Source: Bacteroidales bacterium (GTDB lineage Bacteria > Bacteroidota > Bacteroidia > Bacteroidales > UBA1402). From it: DNA of 64,000 nt. This document shows, in pieces, positions 7,050-52,857 of this stretch. How positions within the stretch are numbered: position 1 is the first letter of the stretch; each line of letters begins with the position of its first letter. The position numbers and the translations under genes are program-made. The notes under the pieces are model-generated. The model was given only the letters and a program-made list of their open reading frames with translations, searched no databases and was not told where the DNA came from. The stretch lies in the NCBI GenBank assembly GCA_028709215.1, contig JAQVXI010000002.1, positions 78,880-142,879 on the forward strand, written 5' to 3'.

Positions 7050-8495
7050 ATGATTAAAACACGGATTCAACGCCCGGTCTTTCTAAGCATCATTCTGCTT
7101 GTTTTGCTCGCTTCTTGTACGAAAAAGGAGCTTCGAAACGGTATACCCAATTTTTCTTGGATTGAAGAGGTAGGAGCCAAACGTTTTCCTACGCAGGATC
7201 ATACCCCCATTTCAGTAAATGATTTCGGTGCGGTTGCCGATACGTCCATCATCAGCACACAAGCCATACAGGCTGCCATCGATGCTTGTGCCGCTCAAGG
7301 CGGTGGTAAAGTCGTGTTTGAAGCAGGTGATTATTGCAGCGGTTCGATTTTTCTTAAATCCGGCGTGCAGTTGCATTTGGATGAAGGTGTCCGTCTTTTT
7401 GGCAGCCAGAACCTAACGGATTATCCATTGATGCCTACTCGGGTTGCCGGTATAGAAATGGAATGGCCTGCCGGTTTAATTACTGCAGTCAATCAGGAAA
7501 ATGTTGCCCTAACCGGATCCGGAGAAATATGGGGACAAGGAAAAGTATTTTGGGACAGTTACTGGAAATTGAGACAAGAATACGATGTTCAACAGCTTCG
7601 GTGGATAACCGATTATGACTGCATGCGTCCGAGAATGGTATTAATTCAAGATTGTACCCACGCAACCATCCTCGGAAACAAATTTTTTGAAGCCGGTTTT
7701 TGGACCATACATATATTATATTCTTCGCAAGTAACCATCGATGGCGTTTTTATCGACAACAACAACGCAGGAAGGGGACCAAGTACGGATGGTATTGACA
7801 TCGATTCCTCCAATCGGATTTTAGTTCAGAATTGTGATATCAGCTGCAACGACGACAATATTTGTCTCAAGGCAGGCAGAGATGCCGACGGTCTGCGCGT
7901 CAATCGTCCGACTGAATTTGTGATCATTCGCAATTCCATAGCCCGTCACGGCGATGGTTTGTTTACCTGTGGCAGCGAGACCTCGGGTGGCATACGCAAC
8001 GTACTATGTTACGATATGAAGGCCATTGAAACAGAAATTGGTTTGCGGTTCAAATCGGCCTTAAATCGCGGTGGAATCGTAGAAAATATATGGATTGCCA
8101 ATGTTGAAATGATTGATTTGCGCGATGCTTTTCAGATCAATTTAAATTGGAACCCCAATTACAGTTATACGCAATTGCCGGAGTCATTTGAGGGAAAATC
8201 CATTCCCAAGCATTGGCAGGTATTGTTGGAACCGGTTTCACCGGAAGAAGGACTACCACAGATTCGAAATATTTACTTTACCGACATTGTGGCAAGAAAT
8301 TGCAAAGTAGGGATGGTCTGTGAAGGTGTTGAGCAATCACCCATTCGTGATTTTCATTTTACCAATGTTTTCGTACATGCCCAACGTCCGGGTCGAATGT
8401 ATTGGGCTCAAGATTGGACGACCAATAATGTTACGTTTGAATTTGAGAATTCTGCTGCAATGGATATTCAGAATAGTCAGAATGCGCAATTATAA
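7050..8495 (+). CDS. Glycoside hydrolase family 28 lipoprotein (polygalacturonase/galacturonosidase-like)
   Basis: The track ORF starts at TTG 6999. ATG 7050 gives MIKTRIQRPVFLSIILLVLLASC (lipobox). GH28 motifs are present: STDGIDIDSS, CNDDNICLKAG, RHGDGLFTCGSE and LRFKS. The N-terminal QAIQAAIDACAAQGGGKVVF is typical. Confidence 0.85.
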   Translation: MIKTRIQRPVFLSIILLVLLASCTKKELRNGIPNFSWIEEVGAKRFPTQDHTPISVNDFGAVADTSIISTQAIQAAIDACAAQGGGKVVFEAGDYCSGSIFLKSGVQLHLDEGVRLFGSQNLTDYPLMPTRVAGIEMEWPAGLITAVNQENVALTGSGEIWGQGKVFWDSYWKLRQEYDVQQLRWITDYDCMRPRMVLIQDCTHATILGNKFFEAGFWTIHILYSSQVTIDGVFIDNNNAGRGPSTDGIDIDSSNRILVQNCDISCNDDNICLKAGRDADGLRVNRPTEFVIIRNSIARHGDGLFTCGSETSGGIRNVLCYDMKAIETEIGLRFKSALNRGGIVENIWIANVEMIDLRDAFQINLNWNPNYSYTQLPESFEGKSIPKHWQVLLEPVSPEEGLPQIRNIYFTDIVARNCKVGMVCEGVEQSPIRDFHFTNVFVHAQRPGRMYWAQDWTTNNVTFEFENSAAMDIQNSQNAQL

Positions 8496-8525
8496 TACGA
8501 AACTAACCATAAAAACAAAAAACCA

Positions 8526-10673
8526 ATGAAAAAAGTCCACCTCTTGTTGCTGACAGCGATTGTTTTGTTGGCCTCTTGTTCCGGCAAAGGCAAACAAGGC
8601 GGTTCCATCGATCGGGAAGCGCTTGTAAAACGGCATCATGTGAACATTCAAACGATTGATTCTTTGTCTTCTTTGTCCGTAGGAAACGGCAATTTTGCAT
8701 TTACGGTTGATGCGACCGGCTTACAAAGTTTTCCCAATTCGTATCGCCTTGGAGTACCTCTGGGCACTCAAGCCCAATGGGGATGGCACAGTTTTCCCAA
8801 CGTACATGGTTTTGAGCCAAAAGATACGTGGAAGGAATACGATTTTCATGGAAAAAAAGAATTGTATGCGACTCAGTTTAACGAAGCGGGTCGTGCACGC
8901 GATGCGGCAAACTACTTGCGCAACAATCCCCACCGGTTGCATCTCGGACACATCGGGCTTCACATGAAACAAAACGACGGAAGTTTGTTTCAACCTTCCG
9001 ATATTCAATCCATTAATCAAACACACAATCTTTGGAACGGATCCATCGAAAGTTCGTTTAAAGCCGGGGAGTATCAAGTGGATGTAGAAACCTTTGTAAC
9101 ACCGGATGCCGATCGGGTTGTTTCCGAAGTACGTTCGACGATGTTTCAAGCGGGAGCAATGTCTGTTTCGTTCCGTTTTGCCTATCCGACCGGCGGACAT
9201 GCAGACGATGCGTGTGATTACAGTAAACCCGATGCGCACAGCAGTAAAATGATTGCTTCCAATGAAAATCTTGCCTTGATTGAACGCACGTTGGACAACG
9301 ATGTCTATTATGTATTGGTACAATGGGAAGGAGATGCTCAATTAAGAGAAACGGACAAACACGTGTTTGAACTGACGCCTTCGACGGAAACGTTACGTTT
9401 TACGACGGAATTTTTGGCCGCGAAACCCAATCTGGATACCCTTGATGCAATTGCGTTTGATGCCGATGAAACCCATACCACACAATGGTGGAATGCGTTT
9501 TGGATGCGTGGTGGTGCCATTGATTTTTCGGATTGCACCGATCCGCGTGCCTTTGAATTGGAGCGCAGAGTGGTTCTTTCTCAACATCTTATGAGTATTC
9601 AATCGGCCGGTATGTATCCTCCACAGGAAACCGGACTGACCTACAACAGTTGGTATGGCAAATTCCATTTGGAAATGCATTGGTGGCACGGAGCTCATTT
9701 CGCGCTTTGGGGACGTCCCGATTTGCTCGAACGCAGCTTGGATTGGTATAATACAGCATTACCCGTTGCAAAATCCATTGCAGAACGACAAGGCTGGAAA
9801 GGTGTTCGTTGGATGAAGATGACCGACCCATCCGCCTTGGAAGCGCCTTCAAAAGTCGGTTCTTTCCTGATTTGGCAACAACCCCACATTATATATATGG
9901 CGGAATTGATGTACCGAAGCAATCCGGACACATCGGTGTTGAATCATTACAAAACATTGGTCTTCGAAACCGCCGAATTTATGGCTGACTTTGTGGACTA
10001 CGAAGAAATTGAAGATCGGTATGTATTGAAAGGAGCCATTCCTGCACAGGAAACCTTGCGTGCTTCCGAAACGGTCAATCCTCCGTTCGAATTAAGTTAT
10101 TGGCATTATGCTCTGTCTACTGCACAGGCCTGGCGTGAACGTTTGGGCATGGAGAAGAATATGGAATGGGAAATCATTCTCGATAAACTATCGCCTCTGG
10201 CGCATCAGGATGGCTTGTATCTTGCAGCCGAAACGGCTTTGGATACCTATGTAGACACACGTTTTACGTCCGACCATATGGCTGTTTTGGGAGCTCTGGG
10301 TATTATGCCGGAATCTCGTCTGGTGCGCAAAGACATCATGACCAATACCTTCAACTGGATTTGGGATAACTGGAACTGGGGTAAAACCTGGGGATGGGAT
10401 TACCCGATGACTGCCATGAGTGCCGCTCGTTTGGGCATGCCGGAACAGGCCATCGGAGCACTTTTGATGGATAAACGTACCAATACATACCTTGTGAATG
10501 GTCACAATTATCAGGACGGTCGTCTGCGTGTGTATTTACCGGGTAACGGTGGTTTGTTGACAGCAGTTGCCATGATGTGTGCCGGTTGGGACGGAAGCGA
10601 AGGGGATGCCCCCGGCTTCCCCAAAGATGGTACATGGAATGTACGCTGGGAAGGTTTGCAACCCATGCCTTAA
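8526..10673 (+). CDS. 715-aa lipoprotein of unknown family; N-terminal beta-rich region plus C-terminal W/H-rich helical region (possible (alpha/alpha)6 glycosidase)
   Basis: Lipobox LLASC|SGKG. The C-terminal ~400 aa is rich in aromatic residues and looks helical (ELERRVVLSQHLMSIQSAGMYPPQETGL, WYGKFHLEMHWWHGAHFALWGRPDLLERSLDWY, FLIWQQPHIIYMAELMY). It sits between GH28 and the secreted proteins of the PUL. The coding call is confident; the function is a guess. Confidence 0.6.
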   Translation: MKKVHLLLLTAIVLLASCSGKGKQGGSIDREALVKRHHVNIQTIDSLSSLSVGNGNFAFTVDATGLQSFPNSYRLGVPLGTQAQWGWHSFPNVHGFEPKDTWKEYDFHGKKELYATQFNEAGRARDAANYLRNNPHRLHLGHIGLHMKQNDGSLFQPSDIQSINQTHNLWNGSIESSFKAGEYQVDVETFVTPDADRVVSEVRSTMFQAGAMSVSFRFAYPTGGHADDACDYSKPDAHSSKMIASNENLALIERTLDNDVYYVLVQWEGDAQLRETDKHVFELTPSTETLRFTTEFLAAKPNLDTLDAIAFDADETHTTQWWNAFWMRGGAIDFSDCTDPRAFELERRVVLSQHLMSIQSAGMYPPQETGLTYNSWYGKFHLEMHWWHGAHFALWGRPDLLERSLDWYNTALPVAKSIAERQGWKGVRWMKMTDPSALEAPSKVGSFLIWQQPHIIYMAELMYRSNPDTSVLNHYKTLVFETAEFMADFVDYEEIEDRYVLKGAIPAQETLRASETVNPPFELSYWHYALSTAQAWRERLGMEKNMEWEIILDKLSPLAHQDGLYLAAETALDTYVDTRFTSDHMAVLGALGIMPESRLVRKDIMTNTFNWIWDNWNWGKTWGWDYPMTAMSAARLGMPEQAIGALLMDKRTNTYLVNGHNYQDGRLRVYLPGNGGLLTAVAMMCAGWDGSEGDAPGFPKDGTWNVRWEGLQPMP

Positions 10674-10705
10674 TGTCGATGTTATACCAATTCTAATAAA
10701 ATAAA

Positions 10706-13264
10706 ATGAAAAAGATCGCCTTCATGATGATGCTGTTGTTGGCCTCGGTTGGTTTTACCGCCCAGGCTGCAACATGGGACTTTGCCAACAAAGGTTTTAG
10801 TGATGCCACCAAAGCCAACTTGGCCGCCGATGCCGCCAATTGGACGGTGAACAACGAGAATCGTTTTACCAATACCACAACCATGTCCGGTGAGCTGATG
10901 GCCAATGGCGTAATCATACCGGAGACTGCTGGAATCTTTTTTGGTTCCATGTCTTCCGGCAAACTCAATATAGACCATGGATACGTACCGCCTCGTGTGA
11001 TGTTGAACGGATCCAATCTAACCTTTTCTTTTAAAGATTTGGAAGCCGGACAAACGATTACACTCGTTACGATGACAGCGAATACTTCTTCTTCGCGCGG
11101 AATTACGTGTTCCAGCAACAATGCAACCCGCATTGCCGGAGAGGAAACATCACTAGAAGAAAATATCAATGTCTTTCAAGTAAATGAAGACGTAGAAGGT
11201 CCGGTAGAAGTACAGTTTAAGACCCTCGTGGGTGGGATTCACATACGATCCGTGACCATCGATGGAGGAGCAATTGATCCGGATGCACCCATTAAGATTG
11301 CCTATTTGTTTGATTCATCGTATGCAAACGGAACCTCACTGGTTGGAACCGAAGAAGATATGATTCTTCAGTATGGTTTGATGCAGAAGGATGTGGTCTC
11401 TATTGACGTAAAAGATCTTACGGATGCCACCAATCAGGTTTTTGTGGATTCACTTGCCGGTCTTCAGCGTAACTACGATGTCGTCGTCATCAGTGAAGCC
11501 ATCTCCAGTAGCCATGCCTTTGGTAAAGCCTTGGTTCATTTGGTCAATCGTGTGCCCATGTTGAATTTAAAATCTTTTTTTTACAAGAGTTCTGTTTGGA
11601 ATTGGGGTTCCGGTGTCAATCCTACCAGTGTGAATAAAGGAGAAGCCGGTGTGACTTCGGTGCAGGTAAACCCTGAATTTCTTGAACATCCCATTTTTGA
11701 AATGGTCGATGTTGAAATGGGCTTGGAATTGTTTACCGGTGATGTCACCGATAAAAATCTGGTTCAGGCGTACACGCCCAGTGCGGGAAGTTTGATCGAA
11801 ACCGACGCCGTACTTGCAACGGTTACAAACGGTACGGATGTATATAATGCGATTCATGAGCATGGTAGTAGCAACGTTTATATGTTGATACCGATGTCAT
11901 CCGATGCATCGCAAACTGTATCTGAGTCGGCCATTCAATTGGTTTTCAATGCTGCGGTATATTTGGCCTCTACAAAAAGTACGGTTGTTCCAGCGGGTAA
12001 ACCCGTGGTTGGTATCGAGTATCGTGACGGTATCAGCATTGTACGCATGTCTTCGTCGACGCCCAGTGCAAACATATATTACACCTTGGATGGAACGGAA
12101 CCTACTGAAGCCAGCCTTTTGTACACCGAACCGTTGCAAATAACTCAGTCGGCTACGGTCAAGGCGATTACAATCCTGCAAGGTTACGACAACAGCTCAG
12201 TGGCGACCGCCGAAGTGCTTGTTAAGACGCAGACTGCAGTACCCGTCGTGAGTATGATCACGATTGAAGGCAATCAGCTCATTCAATTGTCGGCCACGGA
12301 ATCTGCCCGCATTTTTTATACGCTGAATGGAGCCGCTCCCGATACGTTGACAGCTGAGTTCTATACGGAGCCTTTTGTGGTATCCAGACCCAGTCTGTTG
12401 CGTGTAATTGCCTCCGTTTCCGGACAGTTGGTTTCTGAGATTGTTTCGGATTCAGTTCATATCGATGGATATGTCTTACGCAACAAAACGTTGGTTTGGG
12501 CCAATTTTAGCGACCAACCCACTGTTTGGCAATGGGGAGAAGGTAGCAGTACTGGAGATGTGGTCTCAAAATATGCCTATACACTGCCTACCGATGACGA
12601 TCCGACATTAACACCGACTTTGACGGAAGTCGATTTCTTAAATGGTTTTAAAGTGGGCACTTATGGCCAACGCATCAATTTACAGAATACAGGTGTAGCC
12701 GAATCCGGCAATTATAGCCCTGCCTCCGAAGGCGATTTGGGTGCCAGTTCCTTTGCCATGTCCTTTTTGACCACCAATGCCAGTTCCGACCCCACAACGG
12801 CGTATATGGTAACGACCGAAGCGTATGCAGGGCCGTTTGACGTCACGGTTTGGTTTACAGGAGCCAAAAGTACCTCTTACACCGAAAAGCTGGAGATTTC
12901 TATTGCTTCAAGTTTAGATGCTACCGAATGGACGGTATTGGATACCTTGTCGTCAATTGGAGACAAGCTGATCCGTAAGCAAATAGCGTATTACGATTCG
13001 AGCGCTCCGGTTTACGTAAAATTGGCCTCTGCGTCTCAATTGGGAACCAACAGCAACATGATGATTTTTGATCTGAAACTGATGGGTGAGGGTAGCGACC
13101 CCGTTGCGTTGGATCGGACCACGCTGAATAAGACTTTGGTATCGACACGCATCTTTACCGTCGCTGGAACAGAGATTAAAAACTATACGGAAGGAATCAA
13201 TATCCTTCGGAAAACGTATTCCGATGGTTCGGTTCAAATAGAAAAGAAATTGATTAAACAGTGA
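10706..13264 (+). CDS. Secreted multi-domain protein A (852 aa): SP - D1 - D2 - 2x chitobiase/hexosaminidase-C-like repeats - D3 - short T9SS-like C-terminal tail
   Basis: Signal peptide MKKIAFMMMLLLASVGFTAQA. The repeats carry IYYTLDGTEPTEASLLYTEPLQITQSATVKAI and RIFYTLNGAAPDTLTAEFYTEPFVV. The tail reads LVSTRIFTVAGTEIKNYTEGINILRKTYSDGSVQIEKKLIKQ. It is collinear with the next gene. Confidence 0.85.
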   Translation: MKKIAFMMMLLLASVGFTAQAATWDFANKGFSDATKANLAADAANWTVNNENRFTNTTTMSGELMANGVIIPETAGIFFGSMSSGKLNIDHGYVPPRVMLNGSNLTFSFKDLEAGQTITLVTMTANTSSSRGITCSSNNATRIAGEETSLEENINVFQVNEDVEGPVEVQFKTLVGGIHIRSVTIDGGAIDPDAPIKIAYLFDSSYANGTSLVGTEEDMILQYGLMQKDVVSIDVKDLTDATNQVFVDSLAGLQRNYDVVVISEAISSSHAFGKALVHLVNRVPMLNLKSFFYKSSVWNWGSGVNPTSVNKGEAGVTSVQVNPEFLEHPIFEMVDVEMGLELFTGDVTDKNLVQAYTPSAGSLIETDAVLATVTNGTDVYNAIHEHGSSNVYMLIPMSSDASQTVSESAIQLVFNAAVYLASTKSTVVPAGKPVVGIEYRDGISIVRMSSSTPSANIYYTLDGTEPTEASLLYTEPLQITQSATVKAITILQGYDNSSVATAEVLVKTQTAVPVVSMITIEGNQLIQLSATESARIFYTLNGAAPDTLTAEFYTEPFVVSRPSLLRVIASVSGQLVSEIVSDSVHIDGYVLRNKTLVWANFSDQPTVWQWGEGSSTGDVVSKYAYTLPTDDDPTLTPTLTEVDFLNGFKVGTYGQRINLQNTGVAESGNYSPASEGDLGASSFAMSFLTTNASSDPTTAYMVTTEAYAGPFDVTVWFTGAKSTSYTEKLEISIASSLDATEWTVLDTLSSIGDKLIRKQIAYYDSSAPVYVKLASASQLGTNSNMMIFDLKLMGEGSDPVALDRTTLNKTLVSTRIFTVAGTEIKNYTEGINILRKTYSDGSVQIEKKLIKQ
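11288..11980 (+). repeat. D2 module, copy in protein A (aa ~195-425)
   Basis: IKIAYLFDSSYA...YDVVVISEAISSSHAFGKALVHLVNRVPMLNLKSFFYKSSVWNWG...NAIHEHGSSNVYMLIPMS. It aligns by eye with both D2 copies of protein B. Confidence 0.7.
11996..12466 (+). repeat. Tandem pair of ~77-aa chitobiase/beta-hexosaminidase C-terminal-like (Fn3-associated) domains in protein A
   Basis: Each repeat has the pattern (I/R)(Y/F)YT(L)(D/N)G..P....(L/F)YTEP..(I/V)......(K/R)(A/V)I....G...S.V. The equivalent pair in protein B lies at 14755-15228. Confidence 0.7.
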
Positions 13265-13299: not shown

Positions 13300-16041
13300 A
13301 TGAAAAAGAAAAATTTACTCTTTCTTTTTGCGGCGTTGCTTTCTGCAACGAGTTTGTTTGCACAGAAACGCGTCGCGTATGTGTATCAAACCGGCTACAA
13401 TGTGAGCCGGTATGTCTGGGATGCAGAAGGCTACAAGCCTACTCTGGATCCGGTTTACAACGGAATCGCAGCCACCTATGAGGTGACCGATTTTGTGTAT
13501 GCAAGTGCGGATGCACCTGATTTGGAGACCCTTAAAACCTATGATTTAGTTGTTTTGGCTGAAGCCATTTCTGGTGGGTCCGCTTTAGGTAATGCCTTAA
13601 AAGATTTGGTAGGACAGGTTCCGGTATTAAGTCTGAAAGCATACAACTACACCAGTGGTCGTTGGTCTTGGGCAGCTCCGACCAATCCGGCAGCCAAAAC
13701 CCCTTCGGTAACCATCAATCCGGGTTTCGAAAGTCATCCGATTTTTGATGGAGTCACCGGAGCAGGTGGTTTGGTTGAAATCTTTGACGGAACAAACACA
13801 GATAACAACCAGGTTCAAGGGTTTACGACCTTGATTGATGGTGGTTTGATTGAAGCCGACAAAATTATGGCCAACATCACCGGAACGACCACGTCTGCCA
13901 TCCATGAAATCACCACGTTGGATCACAAATATATGTTGATCCCAATTTCAAGTGATGTGTGTACGACCGTTTCTCCCAATGGAGTTAAATTGGTTTTGAA
14001 TGCCTGTGCATACCTAATGGGTGGTGCCGGTGGCTTTGACCCCGATGCTCCGTTCAAAATTGCCTACTTGTATGATTCTTCGTATGCAACCTATGTTGGT
14101 ATTGCCGAGGATCCCATTTACAACTATTCTATTTTGGCAGAAAAAGAAACCGAAGCCATTGATATCAAAGACTTCACGGCTGCTAGTACAGACACCTTAG
14201 CTGCTTTGGAAGGCTACGACTTGATCGTAATCTCAGAAGCCATGGCTAGTGGACATGCATTTGCCAAACCATTGCTGACGTTGGTGAATCGTACCCCTGT
14301 ATTGAATTTCAAATCGTTCTTCTACAAAAATACGGTATGGAATTGGGGAGCAGGAGCCAATCCTTCCTCGGTTAAAACGGTCGATGGTGTGAATGTGATC
14401 AACGTCGCTTCTACCGCCGTCAATCATCCGTTGTTTGAGAACATCGAAGTCATCGACGGTCAAATCGAATTGTTCAACAATGCTGCCGGTGTAAACAAGA
14501 ACATGGTTCAAGGCTATACGGCTTCTGCCAGTGGCCCGATTGCCAACGACAGTGTTTTGGCAACCGTAACTGGTCCTGCAGGAACGTACAATTCCATTCA
14601 CGAACATGGATCCAGCAACATTTATATGTTGATCCCGATGTCTGTGGATGCCTTGATGTGGAACGAAGACATCAATGTATCGGACAATGCCTTCCAAATG
14701 ATTAGCAACGCAGTATATTATTTGTTGGAATCCAAAGGAACGGTTTATCCGGCTGCAGTACCCAGCATGAGTGTTTCGTATGGTGACGGCGTTTCGTATG
14801 TCAGCATGACCACTGCAACGGAAGGAGCAACTATTTATTATACGATCGATGGTAGTGAACCGACGACCAGCAGCAACGTATACTCAGGTACAGTCGAATT
14901 GACGGCTTCTGCTACGGTCAAAGCCATTTCTGCCATGGCCGGTTACAACAACAGTACGGTTGCTTCCATGGATGTTCTTGTGATGTCTAAAGCGGCTACA
15001 CCCGTTATCTCCATCACCGCTGTGGAAGGTGGCAAACAAATCAGTTTGTCTGCTGCTGCCGAAGCGCGTATTTTCTACAGCATTTCCGGTGGTGATCCCG
15101 ATACACTGACCGCTACGCTTTATACAGAACCGTTTGTGGTAACACGTCCGGCATTGATTAAGGCCGTTGCTGCCGAAACCGGCAAATTGGTTTCTGATGT
15201 TGCTGCCGATTCGGCAACCATTGATGGGTACATCAATCGTAATAAAACCTTGGTATGGGCCAACTTCAACGAAGAACCTACTACCTGGACTTGGGCAAAT
15301 ACCGATTCAACAACCACCGATAATGGGGATGTTATTTCAAAATATGCGTACACCACCCCAACCGATGTTGATCCACACTTGACTCCTACTTACAAAGAAG
15401 TGGATTTCCAGAATGGATTTAAGGTCGGAACTTTCGGACAACGCATCAATTTGCAAAAGACGGGTATTGCTGAAACCGGTAATTACAGTTTGGCAACCAG
15501 TGGTGATATCGGTGCAACCGATCGTGCCATGTCATTCCTTACGACGAATGCCGGTTCGGATCCAACGACCGCTTTCATGGTAACGACGACCGCTTATGAC
15601 GGACCATTCGATGTCACGGTTTGGTTTACGGGTGCAAAGAGTACCAGCTACACCGAATTATTGGAAGTGTCGGTTGCCAGCAGCTTGGATGCGACCGAGT
15701 GGACGGTATTGGATACGTTGTCCTCCATTGGAGACAAAAAAATTCGCAAACGTGTGGCTTACTACGATGAAAAAGCGCCTGTATTTGTGAAGTTTGCTTC
15801 TGCATCCAATCTGGGAACCAACAGCAATATGATGATTTTTGACGTGAAATTGATGGGTGAAGGAAACGATCCTGTTTCAGTCGAAAATCCGTCGGTTGAA
15901 AAATCCTTGGTTTCTACACGCATCTTTACGGTATCCGGTATGGAAGTGAAAGCTCCTGTATATGGAATCAACATTGTTCGCAATGTTTATTCTGACGGAT
16001 CTGTTGAAACGAAGAAAGTTTTTGTAAACGATCGATTCTAA
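13300..16041 (+). CDS. Secreted multi-domain protein B (913 aa), paralog of A: SP - D2a - D2b - 2x chitobiase/hexosaminidase-C-like repeats - D3 - short T9SS-like tail
   Basis: The track ORF starts at GTG 13261. ATG 13300 gives MKKKNLLFLFAALLSATSLFAQ. Long stretches are identical to A (GPFDVTVWFTGAKSTSYTE, SSLDATEWTVLDTLSSIGDK, LGTNSNMMIFD). The tail reads LVSTRIFTVSGMEVKAPVYGINIVRNVYSDGSVETKKVFVNDRF. Confidence 0.85.
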   Translation: MKKKNLLFLFAALLSATSLFAQKRVAYVYQTGYNVSRYVWDAEGYKPTLDPVYNGIAATYEVTDFVYASADAPDLETLKTYDLVVLAEAISGGSALGNALKDLVGQVPVLSLKAYNYTSGRWSWAAPTNPAAKTPSVTINPGFESHPIFDGVTGAGGLVEIFDGTNTDNNQVQGFTTLIDGGLIEADKIMANITGTTTSAIHEITTLDHKYMLIPISSDVCTTVSPNGVKLVLNACAYLMGGAGGFDPDAPFKIAYLYDSSYATYVGIAEDPIYNYSILAEKETEAIDIKDFTAASTDTLAALEGYDLIVISEAMASGHAFAKPLLTLVNRTPVLNFKSFFYKNTVWNWGAGANPSSVKTVDGVNVINVASTAVNHPLFENIEVIDGQIELFNNAAGVNKNMVQGYTASASGPIANDSVLATVTGPAGTYNSIHEHGSSNIYMLIPMSVDALMWNEDINVSDNAFQMISNAVYYLLESKGTVYPAAVPSMSVSYGDGVSYVSMTTATEGATIYYTIDGSEPTTSSNVYSGTVELTASATVKAISAMAGYNNSTVASMDVLVMSKAATPVISITAVEGGKQISLSAAAEARIFYSISGGDPDTLTATLYTEPFVVTRPALIKAVAAETGKLVSDVAADSATIDGYINRNKTLVWANFNEEPTTWTWANTDSTTTDNGDVISKYAYTTPTDVDPHLTPTYKEVDFQNGFKVGTFGQRINLQKTGIAETGNYSLATSGDIGATDRAMSFLTTNAGSDPTTAFMVTTTAYDGPFDVTVWFTGAKSTSYTELLEVSVASSLDATEWTVLDTLSSIGDKKIRKRVAYYDEKAPVFVKFASASNLGTNSNMMIFDVKLMGEGNDPVSVENPSVEKSLVSTRIFTVSGMEVKAPVYGINIVRNVYSDGSVETKKVFVNDRF
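13366..14025 (+). repeat. D2a module, extra and degenerate copy in protein B (aa ~23-242)
   Basis: KRVAYVYQTGYN...YDLVVLAEAISGGSALGNALKDLVGQVPVLSLKAYNYTSGRWSWA...SAIHEITTLDHKYMLIPIS. The order of conserved blocks is the same as in D2, but DSS is replaced by QTG and HEHG by HEIT. Confidence 0.65.
14053..14733 (+). repeat. D2b module in protein B (aa ~252-478), positional equivalent of A-D2
   Basis: FKIAYLYDSSYA...YDLIVISEAMASGHAFAKPLLTLVNRTPVLNFKSFFYKNTVWNWG...NSIHEHGSSNIYMLIPMS. Confidence 0.7.
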
Positions 16042-16051
16042 TGTAATCCAA

Positions 16052-16097
16052 CTGCAAAGGGCGGTAGATTCTTTCTGCCGCCCTGTGCAGTTCTTTT
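16052..16097 (+). terminator. Strong intrinsic-terminator-like hairpin inside the PUL, between protein B and the PL1 gene
   Basis: CTGCAAAGGGCGGT (16052-16065) pairs with GCCGCCCTGTGCAG (16077-16090), giving 12 Watson-Crick pairs, 1 G-U pair and 1 mismatch around an 11-nt loop. TTCTTTTAAT follows. Confidence 0.6.
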
Positions 16098-25255: not shown

Positions 25256-25266
25256 TCTGTACCGTA

Positions 25267-26817: not shown

Positions 26818-26824
26818 GTTCCAT

Positions 26825-28474: not shown

Positions 28475-28485
28475 TACTGAATGCT

Positions 28486-30177
28486 ATGAAAAAAAATAAA
28501 TTTTTATCGTTGGGAGTGATGGCCCTAACTGCCGTACTCTTCGTTGCGTGCAACGAGAGTTGGAGTGACCATTACGATCGTGTGGACATGGAAATCGAAA
28601 ACGATCAGGTATTGATTGTGAATGAAACCTCCGCAGACTACCTGGATCAAGCGGATGACCTCTCGCAAATGTATGCGTTTCTAAAAAGCGAAGGTGTGTT
28701 TGACACCTTGGCCATCAAGGACCAGTTGCATACCTTGTTTTTGGTCAAAAACGAACATTTTTCGGAGGTCGATCCGGATAAATCCAGTTTTATCGCCAAA
28801 TCGCACGTGACGGATATTGCCATTTCTCCGTCCAACTTGTATGACGGAGAGCGCATTCTGATGTGGCATGGCAAGTACATCTCGGTCTCCATGGACTCCT
28901 TGGCTGCCGCCGGTCACATCGACCACATTCAAATCAACGAGTCGCCGGTTACGGAAGTCATCAAGACAAAAGATGGCTACATCTACGTGTTGGAATCGAT
29001 GATCGAAACGCCGCTCTCGATGTACGATATCATCAACGATTTGGGCGAAGAATACTCCTTGTTTAAGGATATGGTTATGTCTGAAAACGTCTTGGAGTTT
29101 GACCGCCCCAACAGCAAGCCCATTGGTGTCGATAATACCGGAAACACGGTGTACGACTCGGTTTTCATCATCACGAATCCGTTTTTTGATGCCAAACGCT
29201 TTGATCTGACATCTGAATCTTTAACCGCAACGGTGCTGATTCCGACCAATGAAGTCCTTGAGCAGGCCATGGCCGATGCAAAAACCAAGCTGGCCGAGTG
29301 GGAAATGAGTCGTGATACCAACATCATGAAAAAATGGATTCTTGAAGTGGCCTTCTTTAACAAGAAATACAGCGTTGCTGATTTGGAAGAAAACGAAGAC
29401 ATCTTCTCCATTTACGGTCGTCAATGGAGAACAACGGTTCAGCAATTGGATACCGAAAATCCCATCCGTATGAGTAACGGCATCGGTTACCGGGTCAATT
29501 GGATGAAAATCCCCAACAATGTATTGATGTATCGTCTCAAGGATTATTTCTACTATTACGAGAATTGCTCCGAGACGCAAAAAGCAGAATATTTTGTCGG
29601 CAACAACCTACTTTTCAAAGAATGTGTTACCGATGTGCCTGCTTGGTCGCCTTTGGCCGGGGTTTGGCCAGATGTTGAAAACCGTGTACTGGTTTATGAG
29701 TTTATTGATCCGGTGATTGACGGGTTTACCCTGGACTTCACCCCAGTCAAACGTGTAGCCAACGAAGACGGTGGATTTGAAGTGAAACCCTGGAAAATTC
29801 CTCCCGGTGAGTATTCGTTGGGCATGGGTTTCAAACAAAGTTTGAATCTGGAGGTGGATATTTCCATCATCGACGGAAGTGAAGTCACTTCGTATGCTAC
29901 GACCACCTTGGGTTCTGCCACGACCTTCCATTACGATCGTGGATCGGGTAGCTATGCGGAAGGGTATAAGGAAGCACTGGATGCCGGACTTATTTCACAT
30001 AGCAAGAAAGGTAATTACGACCGTGACGGTGGACAAATCGGAACCGTTGAGTTGAAGGGTGACGGTAACGGCAATCCAGCTCCTTTTGTGATTAGAATCA
30101 ACAACGTTACGTTCGGCAGTGCAACCAAAATGGTGTTTCACCACTGGTGTCTGAGACCTACGAGCAATAATTATTAA
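28486..30177 (+). CDS. Lipoprotein with FAS1-like domains and a C-terminal beta-sandwich-like module
   Basis: ATG 28486 gives MKKNKFLSLGVMALTAVLFVAC|NESWSD. FAS1-like motifs are LHTLFLVKNEHF / DGYIYVLESMIETPL and ATVLIPTNEVLEQAM. The C-terminal module ends ...MVFHHWCLRPTSNNY, which resembles the end of the previous protein. Confidence 0.7.
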   Translation: MKKNKFLSLGVMALTAVLFVACNESWSDHYDRVDMEIENDQVLIVNETSADYLDQADDLSQMYAFLKSEGVFDTLAIKDQLHTLFLVKNEHFSEVDPDKSSFIAKSHVTDIAISPSNLYDGERILMWHGKYISVSMDSLAAAGHIDHIQINESPVTEVIKTKDGYIYVLESMIETPLSMYDIINDLGEEYSLFKDMVMSENVLEFDRPNSKPIGVDNTGNTVYDSVFIITNPFFDAKRFDLTSESLTATVLIPTNEVLEQAMADAKTKLAEWEMSRDTNIMKKWILEVAFFNKKYSVADLEENEDIFSIYGRQWRTTVQQLDTENPIRMSNGIGYRVNWMKIPNNVLMYRLKDYFYYYENCSETQKAEYFVGNNLLFKECVTDVPAWSPLAGVWPDVENRVLVYEFIDPVIDGFTLDFTPVKRVANEDGGFEVKPWKIPPGEYSLGMGFKQSLNLEVDISIIDGSEVTSYATTTLGSATTFHYDRGSGSYAEGYKEALDAGLISHSKKGNYDRDGGQIGTVELKGDGNGNPAPFVIRINNVTFGSATKMVFHHWCLRPTSNNY

Positions 30178-30196
30178 TCGGATTAAATAACTACAC

Positions 30197-33100
30197 ATGA
30201 AAAAGATGAGGATATTCTGGATGGCATTGTTACTGGCTTTCTCAACGGTTGCTTCTGCAGCGGTTGTAAGGGGAAAGGTACAGTCCACCGATCAATCTCC
30301 CGTAGCAGATGCGGTCATCACACTGCCCGGTCATGAAAGTGTTCGTTCTTCACAAGACGGTTCGTTTGAATTGAAAGAGGTGGAGGCAACCGGACATCTG
30401 ACCGTTTGGGCGACCGGTTTTTATGTTCAAACACTGCCTTTGAAGGGTCAAACCGAACTACAGATTCAATTGATCCCGGAAGACAAGTACAAATACAACG
30501 AAACCTTGGTTTTACCCTTTCGTACAGAAACCGGAACCAACGAGGGCATTTCTTCCAGCAACCTGAGCAAGAAAGATTTTGCCTTGGGTAGTATGAGCAT
30601 CGACAAAGCGCTCAAAGGAGAAGTGGCCGGTTTGCAGGTTACCCAAAAAAGTGGCATGACCGGTGAAGGCGCGTACTTCAACTTGCGTGGACTTCGTTCG
30701 CTGGTTTCTGACAATGCGCCCTTGATCGTGTTGAATGGTGTACCCTTTTTGCCGAATAAAAACGAATCCAGGTTGATTAGCGGGTATTCCCGTTCTGTCT
30801 TTCAGGCGTTAAACATCAATGATATTCAAAACATTACGGTGTTGAAGGGGGCTGAAGCCGCTTTATATGGTTCGATGGGTTCTAACGGTGTCATTATGAT
30901 TGAAACCGATGGAGCCGCTTCGGATGATTTGAATACCAAGATTAGTTATTTTGCTCAGGTGGGTGTCAATTGGAACAACAAGCAAATGCCTTTGATGAAG
31001 AATCAGGAGTATAAGTCTTATTTGTCGGATATTGGTATGACGTATTACAACAATATGGAGACCTTTTTCGGCGAATTTCCTTTCTTGACCGATCCCAACA
31101 ACATTTATTCCTATTTGTACGACAACAGTACCGATTGGCAAAATGTGATTTCCGGGAACAGCCTGGTCACCGACCACTTGTTTCGGGTAGAAGGAGGGGA
31201 TGCCATCGCCAAATACGATATCTCGTTGGGTTATACCCGAGATGAGGGAACACTGTTGAATACGGCCTCAAGCCGCTATCACACACAGATTAATACAAAC
31301 GTTTTGGTTAGTCAGAAATTTGAGATTGCAACCACAGTTGGTTTGGCATACTTGAATGGAAGTTATCAGGAACAAGGGATGAATGCCGCAACCAACCCGA
31401 TGTTGGCTGCCTATCAAAAGGCCCCACTGTTGAGCCCATTTAAGAGTGATATCAATGGCAACGAGTTGGCGACCTATTCCAGTTACTATTTTGGCGCGTC
31501 CAACAATATGGATTTTGCCGGAAGTAATCCCCTGGCGCTTGTAGAAACACTTACATCCGGAAATCGTCAATACGATGTGAGTGCCAAAGTAGCCTTGACC
31601 TACAAACCCACCAACGATTTGTCATTCAATGCCAACGTGGGACTGTATTACAACTACGATCAGGAAAACATGTTCATCCCGGGTATCAACAACAAGGATA
31701 TCATGCCCATTTACGATCAATACGGGCAAGCGTCCAATACGGTACGTGTTGGAGTTGCTGAAACCTTCAATATGTACGTTGGACTGACCGGTGCCTATAA
31801 GAAAACACTGGACGAACGCAACCGATTGGATGCCAACGCCGGTTTTCAAATGATCACTACGTCCAATGAATTTGATGCCGGTTCGGGTCGTAATACGCCG
31901 AATGACTTTTATCAAACCTTGGGTGACGTGAACGCTGTAGGACGGTATTTCTTTGGTTACATCGACGTCTGGAATTGGATGAGCTATTATGCACGTGTTG
32001 CCCATACGTATGACGATGTATTGCGTACTTCTGTTAATGTTTCCATCGATGGAGCGTCTTCTACCGGTGCCGATGCACCGCAGTTTGGCGTCTTCCCTTC
32101 GTTGAGTATGACGTATATGGCAAAGAACGCCGGATGGTTGTCGGGTGTGGATGCCATCAATACGTTCAACCTGCGTGCTGAGTACGGATTGACCGGAAAT
32201 AGTCGTTATTCTTCCAAATATGGAAAATACTATTACACCAGTCGTCCGTATCAGGGTATTTCCGGTATCATTCGTGCCAACGTACCCAATACGGAATTGG
32301 AATGGGAGAAGAATGCTCAGTTTGATTTGGGTATGGATGTTTCGATGCTCAATAATCGTGTGGATGTATCGCTGGGTTATTACAACAGCCAGTCTACCGA
32401 TGTGTTGATGATCAGCCCCAATTCCTCTGTTTATGGTACGGGAGTATACTACAGCAACGATGCGGCCATTTCTTCGGATGGTGTGGAATTGTCTGTCAAC
32501 GTAACGCCCGTACAAACCAAGGATTTCCGTTGGGTACTGGGTGGAAACGTAGCCAAGGCAAACAATTCTGTCAAATCATTGGGTGGTGTTCAGGAAACGC
32601 TGATCACTCTATCGGATGATGCTCAGTTGATTACGCGTGTCGGTGAAGATCCGTATGCTTTTTACGGGTATGAGACCGAGGGTGTTTTTGCTACGACAGA
32701 CGAGGCTGTTTCAGCAAACTTGAAGAACCTGAATGGTTTGTCTTATTCTGCCGGTGATGTCCGTTATGTGGATCAAAACAACGATGGGTACATCAACGAA
32801 GAAGATCGTGTGATTTTGGGTTCGGCTTCTCCTGATTTGTTGGGAGGCGTTTTTAACCGTTTCCAATACAAACAGTTTGCGCTGGATGTAAATTTGGCCT
32901 TCTCGATTGGGAATGAGGCATACAATGCCGTGCGCAGAAGCATGGAATCCTCTTCGGATTTTAGCAATCAATCCAGAGCGGTCAATCGTCGATGGACCAT
33001 GGAAGGACAAATTACGGATATGCCCAAAGCAAGCTGGGGCGATGTGATTGGAAACAACGATTTCTCGGATCGCTGGATTGAAGACGCTTCGTATGTGAAA

Positions 33101-33322
33101 CTGCGCGACGTTACGTTGAGTTATTCTTTCAACAAACCCGTATGGAATTTCTTCCAATCTGGTGTGTTGTTTGTGACGGGTGAGAACTTATTGACATTTA
33201 CCAACTACCTGGGTATGGATCCGGAATTCTCTTATTCCTATAGCGATGCCTTGCAAGGGATTGATTACGCGAAAGTAGCTTTGCCCAAAACGGTCAAAGT
33301 TGGTGTTAACTTGAAATTCTAA
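30197..33322 (+). CDS. SusC/RagA-family TonB-dependent outer-membrane transporter, pair 2
   Basis: 1041 aa. The order is signal peptide, carboxypeptidase-regulatory-like N-domain (VRGKVQSTD...DGSFEL), plug (FNLRGLRSL...PLIVLNGVPF) and the C-terminal strand VKVGVNLKF. There is no STN extension. It is only distantly similar to pair-1 SusC. Confidence 0.9.
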   Translation: MKKMRIFWMALLLAFSTVASAAVVRGKVQSTDQSPVADAVITLPGHESVRSSQDGSFELKEVEATGHLTVWATGFYVQTLPLKGQTELQIQLIPEDKYKYNETLVLPFRTETGTNEGISSSNLSKKDFALGSMSIDKALKGEVAGLQVTQKSGMTGEGAYFNLRGLRSLVSDNAPLIVLNGVPFLPNKNESRLISGYSRSVFQALNINDIQNITVLKGAEAALYGSMGSNGVIMIETDGAASDDLNTKISYFAQVGVNWNNKQMPLMKNQEYKSYLSDIGMTYYNNMETFFGEFPFLTDPNNIYSYLYDNSTDWQNVISGNSLVTDHLFRVEGGDAIAKYDISLGYTRDEGTLLNTASSRYHTQINTNVLVSQKFEIATTVGLAYLNGSYQEQGMNAATNPMLAAYQKAPLLSPFKSDINGNELATYSSYYFGASNNMDFAGSNPLALVETLTSGNRQYDVSAKVALTYKPTNDLSFNANVGLYYNYDQENMFIPGINNKDIMPIYDQYGQASNTVRVGVAETFNMYVGLTGAYKKTLDERNRLDANAGFQMITTSNEFDAGSGRNTPNDFYQTLGDVNAVGRYFFGYIDVWNWMSYYARVAHTYDDVLRTSVNVSIDGASSTGADAPQFGVFPSLSMTYMAKNAGWLSGVDAINTFNLRAEYGLTGNSRYSSKYGKYYYTSRPYQGISGIIRANVPNTELEWEKNAQFDLGMDVSMLNNRVDVSLGYYNSQSTDVLMISPNSSVYGTGVYYSNDAAISSDGVELSVNVTPVQTKDFRWVLGGNVAKANNSVKSLGGVQETLITLSDDAQLITRVGEDPYAFYGYETEGVFATTDEAVSANLKNLNGLSYSAGDVRYVDQNNDGYINEEDRVILGSASPDLLGGVFNRFQYKQFALDVNLAFSIGNEAYNAVRRSMESSSDFSNQSRAVNRRWTMEGQITDMPKASWGDVIGNNDFSDRWIEDASYVKLRDVTLSYSFNKPVWNFFQSGVLFVTGENLLTFTNYLGMDPEFSYSYSDALQGIDYAKVALPKTVKVGVNLKF

Positions 33323-33326
33323 AACA

Positions 33327-35003
33327 ATGAATACAGGAAAGAAAATTTTATCAGGATGGTTGGTTTTGATGTTTCTGGGTCTGACCTTCACCGGTTGCAA
33401 CGACTTTTTTGAGCCGGAGACCGACGATGCGCTGACCGGTGACAAATACATTCAAACTCAAACCGAAATGTATACCGGATTTTTGGGCATTGTGACCAAG
33501 ATGCAGGCGGTAGGCGATAAAGCCATTTACTTGACCGATACCCGAGGCGAGTTGCTGGAACCAACCAGCAACAGCCCTTCGGAACTGATTGCGATTTATA
33601 ATTACGAATCCAATTTGCAAGGAAATGCCTATGCAGACCCTGCCGGATATTACGATGTAGTCATTGCGTGCAACGATTTCATCTCGAATATGTTGGAGTA
33701 TAAGGAGAAGTATACGGAGTCTATTGATGTAGAACATTTTAATGCCTTGATCAGTTCGACCTTGCGCATCAAGGTTTGGGCATACATGACCATAGGTAAG
33801 ATTTACGGTCAGGCCTTGTGGTTTAGTGATCCGATGGTTAAGATCCAGGATCTGTCGGATGCCAGTAAATTTGAATTGTTGGATTTGGATGGCGTGATGA
33901 ATGCCTGTATCAATCTTCTGGAACAGGGTGTCGATGGAATTGATGGTTCTCTGACCTTCTCTTGGTATGAATGGTTGGATCCGGAAACCGCACTTGGAGA
34001 CAGCGAGTATCGTTTCTGGGACTATATGACGCCGGATTATGCCGGACTGTATGGCGAATTGTGCTTGTGGACCGGAAGGTATCAGGATGCAGCGGATGTG
34101 CTGTTGGATGCTTTGAATGAGAAGATTTCTTCTTCAACTTCGGATGCAACCCCTTGGATCCGCAACGTGACGTTGAACGGAAACTACGCAACCATCTGGA
34201 ATTATCCGGATCCTTATGCACGTGAAGTTGTTTCGGCCATCATTTACAGTTATACCAACGATCAAACCAATGACCTGTTGCGCCATTTTGGTACGGAGTA
34301 TCCCAACGAGTATTTGTTGAGACCAACCGACTTTGGAATGGCTCGTTTTAGCAACGACACGTTGAATCCAGTGGGTTCCGGTAGTGAAACGCGTATGGGT
34401 GTAACGTTTACAACCTTGTCTGGTGGACGTTCTGTGATATGTAAGTTCCGTCCAAACGGCAACCGTCGCCCGTATCCTTACCAGGATGATGTACATATCT
34501 ACATATTCCGTGCATCCGAATATCATTTTATGTTGGCGGAAGCATTGAACAACTTGGGTCGATTTGAAGAGGCCGATGCGTTGATCAACAAAGGTGTTTC
34601 CGGTAAATTCCCAACCGGTGGTGTCACCTGGGACGGATTTACCGATGACTGGACCACTTCTACGGCTTTGGGTACCCGTAAATACCCCAACGTGGGTATT
34701 CGTGGCACGTTTGGCCTTTCAAGTCGTACCTTCCGTACCATTGTGTCGGATGCGGCAAAGGAAGAAGCAAAAAAGTTTAACGATCTTGCCATCATGGATG
34801 AAATGCTGCTGGAATTCCCTTGTGAAGGGAAGATTTATCCTGCATTGATTCGTGTGGCCAAACGCTGGAACGATTACAACGTGGTTGCCGATCGGGTCGT
34901 GGGTAAGTATGGTGATCGTGCGGAGGAAGTCCGTAGCATCATTAACAGTGAGGTGAATGGTGTTCAAGGTTGTTTTGTGCCTTGGGATTTGGAACTGAAT
35001 TGA
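33327..35003 (+). CDS. SusD/RagB-family lipoprotein, pair 2
   Basis: Lipobox LTFTGC|NDFFE. SusD-like helices are present (IYIFRASEYHFMLAEALNNLGRFEEA, EFPCEGKIYPALIRVAK). It lies 4 nt after SusC. Confidence 0.85.
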   Translation: MNTGKKILSGWLVLMFLGLTFTGCNDFFEPETDDALTGDKYIQTQTEMYTGFLGIVTKMQAVGDKAIYLTDTRGELLEPTSNSPSELIAIYNYESNLQGNAYADPAGYYDVVIACNDFISNMLEYKEKYTESIDVEHFNALISSTLRIKVWAYMTIGKIYGQALWFSDPMVKIQDLSDASKFELLDLDGVMNACINLLEQGVDGIDGSLTFSWYEWLDPETALGDSEYRFWDYMTPDYAGLYGELCLWTGRYQDAADVLLDALNEKISSSTSDATPWIRNVTLNGNYATIWNYPDPYAREVVSAIIYSYTNDQTNDLLRHFGTEYPNEYLLRPTDFGMARFSNDTLNPVGSGSETRMGVTFTTLSGGRSVICKFRPNGNRRPYPYQDDVHIYIFRASEYHFMLAEALNNLGRFEEADALINKGVSGKFPTGGVTWDGFTDDWTTSTALGTRKYPNVGIRGTFGLSSRTFRTIVSDAAKEEAKKFNDLAIMDEMLLEFPCEGKIYPALIRVAKRWNDYNVVADRVVGKYGDRAEEVRSIINSEVNGVQGCFVPWDLELN

Positions 35004-35014
35004 AAACTTGATTT

Positions 35015-36184
35015 ATGAAGAATATTAAAAAAATATGTATTGGAATGGTCATGGCTCTTGTAGCCATGACTTCCTGTTCCCAGGCGCCCCGCATGTCGGT
35101 GCGTATGGCCGATTCGGAGATGGCACGTTTTCCGCAATTGTATCAGTTCGACCACGGCAAACGATTGTATTTTGGTTATACCCAGGGTCTGGGTGGACTG
35201 GCTTTTATAAAAATGTGGAAAGCAACGGGCAATTCGGCCTACTATGACTACGTATACCAATGGGGAGATACCATCATCGGTGAAGACGGATCCATTCATT
35301 TGTACAAGATGAAGGATTACAACCTGGATTTTATCAATGCCGGTAAAGTCTTATTTACGTTATACGAGGAAACGGGCGAGCCGCGTTTTCGCATGGCCAT
35401 GGACACTCTGTTGAGGCAGTTTGAAAAGCATCCGCGCACGGCAGATGGTGGTTTCTGGCATAAGAACATCTATACCCATCAAATGTGGTTGGATGGTTTG
35501 TATATGGCCTCTCCGTTTATGTCTGAATACGGTGCTCGATTTGATCAACCGCAGTGGATTGAAGAAGCGATCCATCAGTTGGTGACGGTTGATATCCATA
35601 CCTATGATACTGTTTCCGGTTTGTTTTATCATGCTTGGGACGAAAGCCGTTCGCAGCAATGGGCCGATTCCATCACCGGACGCTCGCCCAATTTTTGGGG
35701 TAGAAGCATCGGATGGTATGCCATGGCATTGGTGGACAATTTGGATTTTATTCCGGAAGACCATCCAAGACGCGTGGAAGTACTGGATATCGTGCAACGT
35801 TTGGCGGATGGGATGCTGACCTATCAGGACGAAGACGGTCTGTGGTGGCAGGTGGTAGACAAAGCAGGAGAAGAAGGCAACTATCAGGAAGCATCGGTTT
35901 CTTCGATGATGATGTACTTTTATGCCAAGGCATACAACAAAGGCTACCTGTCAAAGATGTATCAGGATGCTGCGCAAAAGGCGTTTGATGGCATTCAGAA
36001 ACGATTGATTCTTGAGAACGAAGATGGAAGCGTATCGCTGACCAATTGTTGCGCCGTAGCCGGATTGGGAGGTAAGCCCTACCGGGATGGTTCGTACGAG
36101 TACTACGTCAACGAGCGCAAGCGTGACAACGATGGCAAATCGACCGGTCCGTTTATCATGGGTTGCTTGGAATTGGGAAAATAA
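35015..36184 (+). CDS. GH105 unsaturated rhamnogalacturonyl/galacturonyl hydrolase (YteR-like) lipoprotein
   Basis: Lipobox AMTSC|SQAP. It shows the (alpha/alpha)6 YteR-type signatures WHKNIYTHQMWLDGLYMASPFMSEYG, FYHAWDES, FWGRSIGWYAMALVD and GLWWQVVDK. Confidence 0.85.
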   Translation: MKNIKKICIGMVMALVAMTSCSQAPRMSVRMADSEMARFPQLYQFDHGKRLYFGYTQGLGGLAFIKMWKATGNSAYYDYVYQWGDTIIGEDGSIHLYKMKDYNLDFINAGKVLFTLYEETGEPRFRMAMDTLLRQFEKHPRTADGGFWHKNIYTHQMWLDGLYMASPFMSEYGARFDQPQWIEEAIHQLVTVDIHTYDTVSGLFYHAWDESRSQQWADSITGRSPNFWGRSIGWYAMALVDNLDFIPEDHPRRVEVLDIVQRLADGMLTYQDEDGLWWQVVDKAGEEGNYQEASVSSMMMYFYAKAYNKGYLSKMYQDAAQKAFDGIQKRLILENEDGSVSLTNCCAVAGLGGKPYRDGSYEYYVNERKRDNDGKSTGPFIMGCLELGK

Positions 36185-52852: not shown

Positions 52853-52857
52853 TGCGA

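Follow-up and report, generated by a model that had tools for sequence, protein, structure and literature searches.

A 13-gene pectin utilization locus of probable rhamnogalacturonan-I type in a Bacteroidales genome

The described systems closest to the locus analysed here, a 13-gene cluster at positions 7050-36184 of a 64-kb stretch of Bacteroidales DNA (GCA_028709215.1, contig JAQVXI010000002.1, positions 78,880-142,879; the whole stretch is called the window), are polysaccharide utilization loci (PULs) for pectin. In the rhamnogalacturonan-I (RG-I) locus of Bacteroides thetaiotaomicron, BT4164/65 and BT4168/69 are SusC/D pairs, BT4167 is an RG-I-binding surface protein and BT4170 is a surface lyase (PMC8002723). 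In the row BT4164-69, a SusC and a DUF5108 protein are listed together with hypothetical proteins and a TonB-dependent receptor, and the row BT4109-14 of the homogalacturonan (HG) PUL has a DUF5123 protein instead of DUF5108 (PMC10434189). The RG-I locus also holds hybrid two-component system genes (HTCS), BT4178 and BT4182 (PMC3878776). In Segatella copri, a compact pectin PUL with two SusC/D pairs is induced on HG and RG-I, with co-induced uronate genes scattered elsewhere (PMC11784079). PULs without an identified regulator have been described in Bacteroides xylanisolvens (PMC4769552).

The locus in the window is a pectin-directed PUL and a real cluster of 13 consecutive plus-strand genes, identified by open reading frame (ORF) listing and inspection of start codons, with ATG starts that give normal signal peptides. 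Two adjacent susC/susD-like pairs stand on the same strand as genes for GH28, PL1-like, GH105 and GH65/95-fold proteins. From the first gene to the last, the intergenic gaps are 30, 32, 35, 71, 29, 18, 11, 7, 11, 19, 4 and 11 nt, and the co-directional arrangement and gaps given in the original prediction were reproduced exactly from the ORF listing and the chosen ATG starts. With moderate confidence, we read the locus as a compact pectin-backbone PUL of the RG-I type. Its genes are:

g1, 7050..8495 (+): GH28 lipoprotein (Pfam GH28, 9e-22)
g2, 8526..10673 (+): 715-amino-acid (aa) lipoprotein of an uncharacterized family with a GH65/GH95/GH139-like fold
g3, 10706..13264 (+): 852-aa secreted multidomain protein (signal peptidase I, SPI), paralog of g4, with two Fn3_assoc/CHB_HEX_C domains
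g4, 13300..16041 (+): 913-aa secreted multidomain protein with two α/β domains, two Fn3_assoc domains, a carbohydrate-binding module (CBM)-like β-sandwich and a small C-terminal β domain
g5, 16113..19700 (+): 1195-aa secreted PL1-like lyase with fn3, PATR repeats and a type IX secretion system (T9SS) type-A C-terminal domain
g6, 19730..21994 (+): 754-aa fasciclin surface lipoprotein (Pfam Fasciclin, 5e-11), candidate glycan-binding protein
g7, 22013..25255 (+): SusC-like protein 1 (TIGR04056, 762 bits) with only CarboxypepD_reg and Plug domains
g8, 25267..26817 (+): SusD-like lipoprotein 1 (Pfam SusD_RagB, 6e-38, plus SusD-like_3)
g9, 26825..28474 (+): surface lipoprotein (DUF5108, 7e-26, plus Fasciclin, 2.5e-24), marker of the RG-I-type core
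g10, 28486..30177 (+): fasciclin surface lipoprotein (Pfam Fasciclin, 1.6e-9) in the position equivalent to BT4167
g11, 30197..33322 (+): SusC-like protein 2 (TIGR04056, 594 bits)
g12, 33327..35003 (+): divergent SusD-like lipoprotein 2 (weak Pfam SusD match, 3e-5)
g13, 35015..36184 (+): GH105 lipoprotein (Pfam GH88 clan, 4e-104)

The RG-I reading is carried by the import core, g7-g12 (22013-35003), with the order SusC-SusD-fasciclin/DUF5108-fasciclin-SusC-SusD. This is the RG-I-type arrangement of SusC, SusD, DUF5108 protein, surface glycan-binding protein, SusC and SusD, and it agrees with the published layout of BT4164-69. The order was invariant across all 86 related loci fetched (numbered L001 onwards), comprising 6 of 6 loci from species-representative genomes and 80 of 80 from metagenomes; the latter, many from human gut or rumen, form 32 groups at ≥90% SusD2 identity. 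The core occurs widely in gut and rumen Bacteroidales, often with a linked HTCS. Beside it stand PL11 rhamnogalacturonan lyases (L089, L095), a PL9-type helix (L055) and a GH106 α-L-rhamnosidase (L060 and L095 by Pfam, L063 by BLAST to those two). GH78 adjoins it in L010, and L060 also has a SASA-type esterase and an AraC regulator there. With PL11 or PL9 lyases, GH106 and HTCS genes next to the core in other lineages, an RG-I-type target is more likely than plain HG.

Genome loci with the core include those of Bacteroides finegoldii and Bacteroides sp. 224, and of the named genomes B. finegoldii JCM 13345 is closest (L005; 43-60% identity). In that complete genome (AP027244.1, 1902312-1923930), frame breaks split or shorten the homologs of SusD1, SusC2, SusD2 and GH28; these are either pseudogenes or assembly errors. 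Homologs of g6 occur with the g5 lyase upstream of the core in a Bacteroidaceae metagenome-assembled genome (MAG), which also has a g4-like gene, GH105 and GH78 nearby, and in Prevotella.

Within the core, the two SusC/D pairs are old. SusC1 (g7) and SusC2 (g11) are 27% identical and the two SusD-like proteins about 21% identical over a partial alignment, in agreement with the earlier view that the pairs are divergent and not a recent duplication. Pfam and NCBIfam searches likewise bore out that neither SusC carries an STN signalling domain. The weakly matching g12 directly follows SusC2 in all related loci, and the 772 homologs of g6 always adjoin the core. Acidic export motifs follow the lipobox cysteine of the SusD-like and fasciclin lipoproteins (C-KDNMDD in g6) and are absent from GH28, g2 and GH105, a pattern that places the former on the surface and the latter in the periplasm.

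For g1, the best NCBIfam models are BT4153 and BT4155, both far below their equivalog cut-offs, and the PDB matches are the exo-polygalacturonase 3jur and 5olp (1e-45). With its LASC lipobox and no acidic export signal, g1 is predicted to face the periplasm and to be of exo-galacturonidase or rhamnogalacturonidase type. The PL1 assignment of g5 is divergent: the Pfam score lies under the gathering threshold, NCBIfam PelZ matches at 9e-32 with 110 bits against a cut-off of 840, and PDB searches return pectate lyase 9buj (2e-29) together with VexL, a lyase for acetylated galactosaminuronan. A C-terminal sorting domain (TIGR04183, 41 bits against a cut-off of 23; Pfam Por_Secre_tail, 7e-8) and the presence of sprA in the window mark g5 as T9SS cargo. 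The reading of the 1195-aa g5 as a third SusC was rejected, domain searches having shown a lyase. GH105 (g13) matches 4wu0 (2e-95), the unsaturated rhamnogalacturonyl hydrolase YteR (4e-74) and an unsaturated 3S-rhamnoglycuronyl hydrolase, and is predicted to be a periplasm-facing, YteR-type unsaturated (rhamno)galacturonyl hydrolase. An exact look-up of this protein returned no entry.

The original prediction had taken PL1, GH28 and GH105 to indicate homogalacturonan or pectin; pectin stands, and homogalacturonan is probably too narrow or wrong. An HG-specific PUL would have PL1 cut de-esterified HG and GH105 and GH28 finish the oligogalacturonides, with esterases encoded elsewhere. The pectate-lyase matches of g5 (9buj and the PelZ model) and the similarity of g1 to 3jur suit such a system, and the B. 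thetaiotaomicron HG PUL also combines two SusC/D pairs with PL1, GH105 and GH28 (PMC8002723). The surface marker, however, is DUF5108, as in BT4164-69, rather than the DUF5123 of BT4109-14; PL11, PL9 and GH106 adjoin this core in other lineages; GH105 is closest to YteR; and the window has no CE8 or CE12 gene. We therefore regard HG specificity as unlikely, although it survives best among the alternatives.

Novelty in the locus is confined to the uncharacterized g2 and g3/g4 families and the long PL1-like family of g5. No Pfam, NCBIfam or PDB sequence match was found for g2, and the family profile reached a best E value of 0.13 against PDB. Its AlphaFold (AF2) model (predicted TM-score, pTM, 0.75) comprises an N-terminal β-supersandwich and an (α/α)6 barrel, for which Foldseek returned GH65, GH95 and GH139 structures (9e-18 to 4e-10, TM about 0.55-0.6). 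The protein thus has a clan GH-L-like fold (GH15/GH65/GH95/GH139) and by sequence belongs to no described GH family. More than 8000 homologs, mostly from Bacteroidales, are all unnamed or 'hypothetical', and a UniRef entry of the family is labelled 'GH65 N-terminal domain'. With a lipobox that lacks the acidic surface-export motif, g2 is probably, judging from the modelled fold, a periplasmic exo-glycosidase of an undescribed family. Since g2 and GH106 never occur together in the visible flanks of core loci, and on that observation only, we infer that g2 may supply the rhamnosidase step in place of GH106, which makes it a candidate α-L-rhamnosidase substitute. Bacteroides loci have, after the core, g2, a protein of about 1087 aa (u1087, whose only Pfam match is DUF4450) and GH28, with the large protein at 13855-17118 in L004, at 14002-17274 in L009 and in many metagenome loci. 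A literature search returned essentially nothing on DUF4450 or on fasciclin in PULs.

The secreted paralogs g3 and g4 are 59% identical over 677 aa and belong to a rare family, with about 60 clusters in 5.8 billion proteins. In the AF2 model of g4 (predicted local distance difference test, pLDDT, 84), the α/β domains come nearest to a ThuA-like fold (1t0b, target-normalised TM-score 0.57 by Foldseek), and the β-sandwich resembles a pectate-lyase carbohydrate-binding domain (8wc1, target-normalised TM-score 0.62). The C-termini of g3 and g4 look like sorting domains by eye and gave no Pfam or NCBIfam sorting-domain match even at E values up to 5. One copy of the α/β domain in g4 lies at:

14041-14760 (g4 residues 248-487): unclassified α/β domain, also present in g3 and as domain 1 of g4

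Taken alone, this domain is represented only 199 times in 1.84 billion clusters. Among 50 distant homologs, it occurs together with Ig-like repeats, T9SS tails (Por_Secre_tail in 6 of the 50) and Listeria-Bacteroides repeats, and it is fused in single proteins to PL11 RG lyase, GH105, pectinesterase (CE8) or CBM77. In these associations, the domain behaves like an accessory part of secreted enzymes that act on pectin. Its most widely conserved residues are aromatic, which fits binding better than catalysis. A bolder reading, in which g2 founds a new GH family that carries out the RG-I rhamnosidase step, the α/β domain is a module of a new kind for pectin, either binding or esterase, and g5 has an RG-I-related specificity new to PL1, strikes us as rather unlikely.

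Domain searches of every ORF in the window, antisense ORFs inside the locus included, found no regulator, CE8/CE12 esterase, major facilitator superfamily (MFS)-type transporter or kdu/uxa family member; the absences reported here apply to these 64 kb only. Reg_prop, HisKA, Response_reg and HTH_AraC domains were absent from the window, tblastn with three HTCS proteins returned nothing in it, and the 13 locus proteins had no Pectinesterase, SGNH or DUF5123 match. The original statement that no regulator, esterase, inner-membrane sugar transporter or catabolic gene is linked to the locus is thereby confirmed across 64 kb. None of the unassigned genes proved to be a regulator: g2, g3 and g4 have signal peptides and an extracytoplasmic architecture, with no DNA-binding or kinase domains, and were rejected as hidden regulators. 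Antisense ORFs inside the locus were rejected in the same role, none matching any family.

The significance first attached to these absences did not hold up. PULs normally come without transporter and catabolic genes, and in a slimmed-down relative of a well-studied gut Bacteroides system the lack of a linked regulator and of esterases is ordinary too; the headline anomaly is not anomalous. A regulator is found beside the core in the same locus family, the very observation that the original prediction had named as telling against itself: among the 33 loci with ≥9 kb of downstream sequence, 11 have an HTCS downstream (within 10 kb), and these represent 7 or more of the 32 sequence groups. A complete HTCS (by Pfam, Reg_prop, Y_Y_Y, HisKA, HATPase, Response_reg and HTH_AraC) adjoins the core in L073 and L089; in L019 and L095, Pfam recognised Reg_prop N-termini that are truncated where the contig ends. 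BLAST to the proteins of these four loci identified an HTCS in L056, L060, L063, L069, L074, L076, L077 and L080. The usual regulator of this locus family is the HTCS that adjoins the core in other lineages, and the regulator of the present locus is, by analogy, probably an HTCS encoded outside the 64 kb and acting in trans.

Linkage is changeable even between close relatives. Among human-gut loci of one SusD2 group (≥90% identity), L069 has an HTCS and L070 does not, and likewise L056 and L057. The DNA of L069 and L070 is 97% identical to the end of GH28 (locus position about 18.7 kb) and then diverges; loci without an HTCS continue into a 111-aa ORF and unrelated genes.

The following signals were located upstream of and inside the locus:

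6863..6907 (+): rseP terminator hairpin then CUUUUGUG (-23.5 kcal/mol, z -5.4), upstream boundary of the locus
6929..6945: 8-1-8 palindrome ATCCTGATAATCAGGAT, between the rseP terminator and the -7 box
7016..7023 (+): Bacteroidetes-type -7 box TATATTTG (TAnnTTTG), 27 nt 5' of the GH28 ATG
16050..16092 (+): hairpin then U-rich UCUUUUAAUG (-32.3 kcal/mol, z -7.1), inside the 71-nt g4-g5 gap

The -7 box is invariant across all five aligned relatives, and strong hairpins of unrelated sequence occupy the rseP-terminator site in relatives; a scan for sigma-70 promoters and terminators is uninformative for Bacteroidetes. The palindrome, pointed out in the original prediction, was rejected as an operator: a copy search gave one copy in the window, its hairpin is weak (z -0.84), only the inner TGATAATCAG (10 nt) is common to the window and one of four relatives, and the stronger hairpin at 6863-6907 is the rseP terminator. 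Two further elements were seen in this region. A direct repeat, CCGGTGGCGATT and CCCGTTGCGATT (6953-6964 and 6995-7006 (+), 42 nt apart), lies just 5' of the -7 box and is probably a chance match, though it is placed where an HTCS direct-repeat site would be expected. A block between the rseP stop codon and the terminator, GTGTAAnAnTTGnTGnAAATAGG...GTTAAAT, is kept in L001, L002, L015 and L016 and only partly in the window (6864-6896).

The g4-g5 hairpin has a counterpart of different sequence at the same junction of L016, a 73%-identical relative (about 14955-14995, -24.2 kcal/mol, z -5.5). No TAnnTTTG box was seen 3' of it on inspection of the sequence, and it is possibly an attenuator, partial terminator or processing site. 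A single transcript for all 13 genes is plausible, and this hairpin could split the cluster.

A locus with no dedicated sensor, whether constitutive, under global carbohydrate control or governed by some new cis element (the palindrome at 6929-6945 or the hairpin at 16050, for instance), would account for the absence of any regulator in 64 kb. The close relatives that share the rseP context show none in their visible parts; in L008 and L017, GH105 leads straight on to wecA, ruvA and sprA; HTCS presence varies at ≥90% SusD2 identity, as between L069 and L070; and the g4-g5 hairpin is conserved in position. The palindrome, by contrast, is single-copy, weak and not conserved, an HTCS is the recurrent partner of the core where a regulator is visible, and the literature already has PULs whose regulators are distal or unidentified (PMC4769552). 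Sensor-free control is, in our judgement, quite improbable.

Several points weigh against an RG-I-type PUL transcribed as one unit and controlled in trans by an HTCS. The window has no PL4, PL9, PL11 or PL26 lyase, its only lyase being PL1-like, and no GH78 or GH106. To our knowledge, all characterized PL1 enzymes act on homogalacturonan and not on RG-I. The likeness to BT4164-69 is one of domain content and gene order. The NCBIfam scores of g1 lie far under the equivalog cut-offs, and g1 is only about 30% identical to the GH28s that adjoin the core in other lineages, which makes those enzymes unusable for inferring its specificity. As for control, 22 of the 33 related loci have no HTCS within 10 kb, none appears in the upstream flanks visible in four lineages, and an unlinked HTCS is an extrapolation. 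The hairpin at 16050-16092 could divide the cluster into two units.

That the target is another uronate polymer, a bacterial or algal acidic polysaccharide and not plant pectin, might be suggested by the resemblance of g5 to VexL, by g2, g3 and g4 without known specificity and by GH105 members that act on several unsaturated uronides, but it is very improbable given that every assignable neighbour of the core in the 86 loci is pectin-related (GH28, GH105, PL1, PL9, PL11, GH106, GH78) and that the α/β domain of g3/g4 is elsewhere fused to pectinesterase, PL11 and CBM77.

For the preferred RG-I-type PUL, we propose the following course. Transcription would start at the -7 box (7016-7023), downstream of the rseP terminator. 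Exported by the T9SS, g5 would cut the galacturonate-containing backbone by β-elimination outside the cell, where g3 and g4 probably bind or condition pectin, a role suggested by the fusion of their α/β domain to pectin enzymes in other proteins. The surface proteins g6, g9 and g10 and the two SusD-like proteins would capture the fragments, and the two divergent SusCs would import them, perhaps as different size or structure classes. In the periplasm, GH105 would remove the unsaturated uronate, GH28 galacturonate and g2, putatively, rhamnose. Monosaccharide uptake and uronate and rhamnose catabolism would be encoded elsewhere, as in most PULs, and a distal, unlinked HTCS would sense an intermediate and control the locus in trans.

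The surroundings of the locus are housekeeping genes, as had been noted, with rseP upstream (5463-6845) and a convergent gene abutting downstream:

36185-37240 (-): GT4/WecA-like gene, convergent, abutting the GH105 stop codon

Upstream in the window lie DUF4290, murA, rimM, an ABC ATPase, an M23 peptidase, dxr and rseP; downstream are the WecA-like GT4 gene, ruvA, sprA, thiamine genes, an SLC12-domain transporter of the amino-acid permease family and relA/spoT. Co-directionality is not peculiar to the PUL, as the plus strand carries all genes between 115 and 36184. Close relatives share the chromosomal site, with rseP followed by GH28 and g2, and vary in g3/g4-family content: one copy in L015 and L016, both copies and no lyase in L001, neither copy in L002 and L003. 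Recent horizontal acquisition has no support, the GC content (0.460) being like that of the flanks (0.464 and 0.475) and the rseP context being kept in relatives.

The T9SS translocon gene sprA (2438 aa, 38017-45333 (+), 1.6e-207) is placed 1.8 kb downstream of the PUL, which itself codes for one or more T9SS cargo proteins; the synteny is probably coincidental. A thiamine pyrophosphate (TPP) riboswitch (52765-52854 (-), Rfam RF00059, 60 bits) precedes the minus-strand thi4-thiC-thiD genes. An 818-aa ORF (45305-47761 (-)) and a 293-aa ORF (58211-59092 (+)) have no Pfam or NCBIfam family.

The double-SusC/D core with its DUF5108 and fasciclin proteins can serve as a marker for RG-I-type loci, and the families that travel with it (the widespread g2, the rare g3/g4 α/β domain and the long PL1-like g5) could yield new carbohydrate-active enzyme (CAZyme) or binding-module families. 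Presence and absence of the HTCS at strain level offer a natural experiment on how tightly PUL regulators need linkage. For the question of regulator-less PULs, little changes.

Among known systems, the chitin utilization locus of Flavobacterium johnsoniae combines a T9SS-secreted depolymerase with two SusC/D pairs, as does the locus in the window, and differs in its substrate, its enzymes and its linked two-component regulator. The S. copri DSM 18205 PUL (NQ544_01765-01830) resembles ours in gene content, being compact with two SusC/D pairs, PL1, GH28 and GH105; it has CE8, GH95 and GH43_10, unlike the window locus, and the available portion of the report names no in-locus regulator (PMC11784079). 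PL1, GH28, GH105 and two SusC/D pairs are also shared with the B. thetaiotaomicron HG PUL BT4108-BT4124 (PMC8002723), which has CE8/CE12, a DUF5123-type surface protein and the HTCS genes BT4111 and BT4124, whereas the window locus has none of these. With the RG-I PUL BT4145-BT4183 the locus shares two SusC/D pairs with a DUF5108 protein and another surface glycan-binding protein between them, GH28 and GH105, and an extracellular lyase followed by periplasmic exo-degradation (PMC8002723, PMC10434189). It is smaller (13 genes against about 39 locus tags), uses the T9SS-secreted PL1-like g5 in place of the surface PL9 BT4170 or PL11, lacks GH106, GH2, GH35, esterases and HTCS, and has g2, g3, g4 and g6 in addition. 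We regard the locus as a trimmed version of the known RG-I-type PUL, one that makes use of the T9SS.

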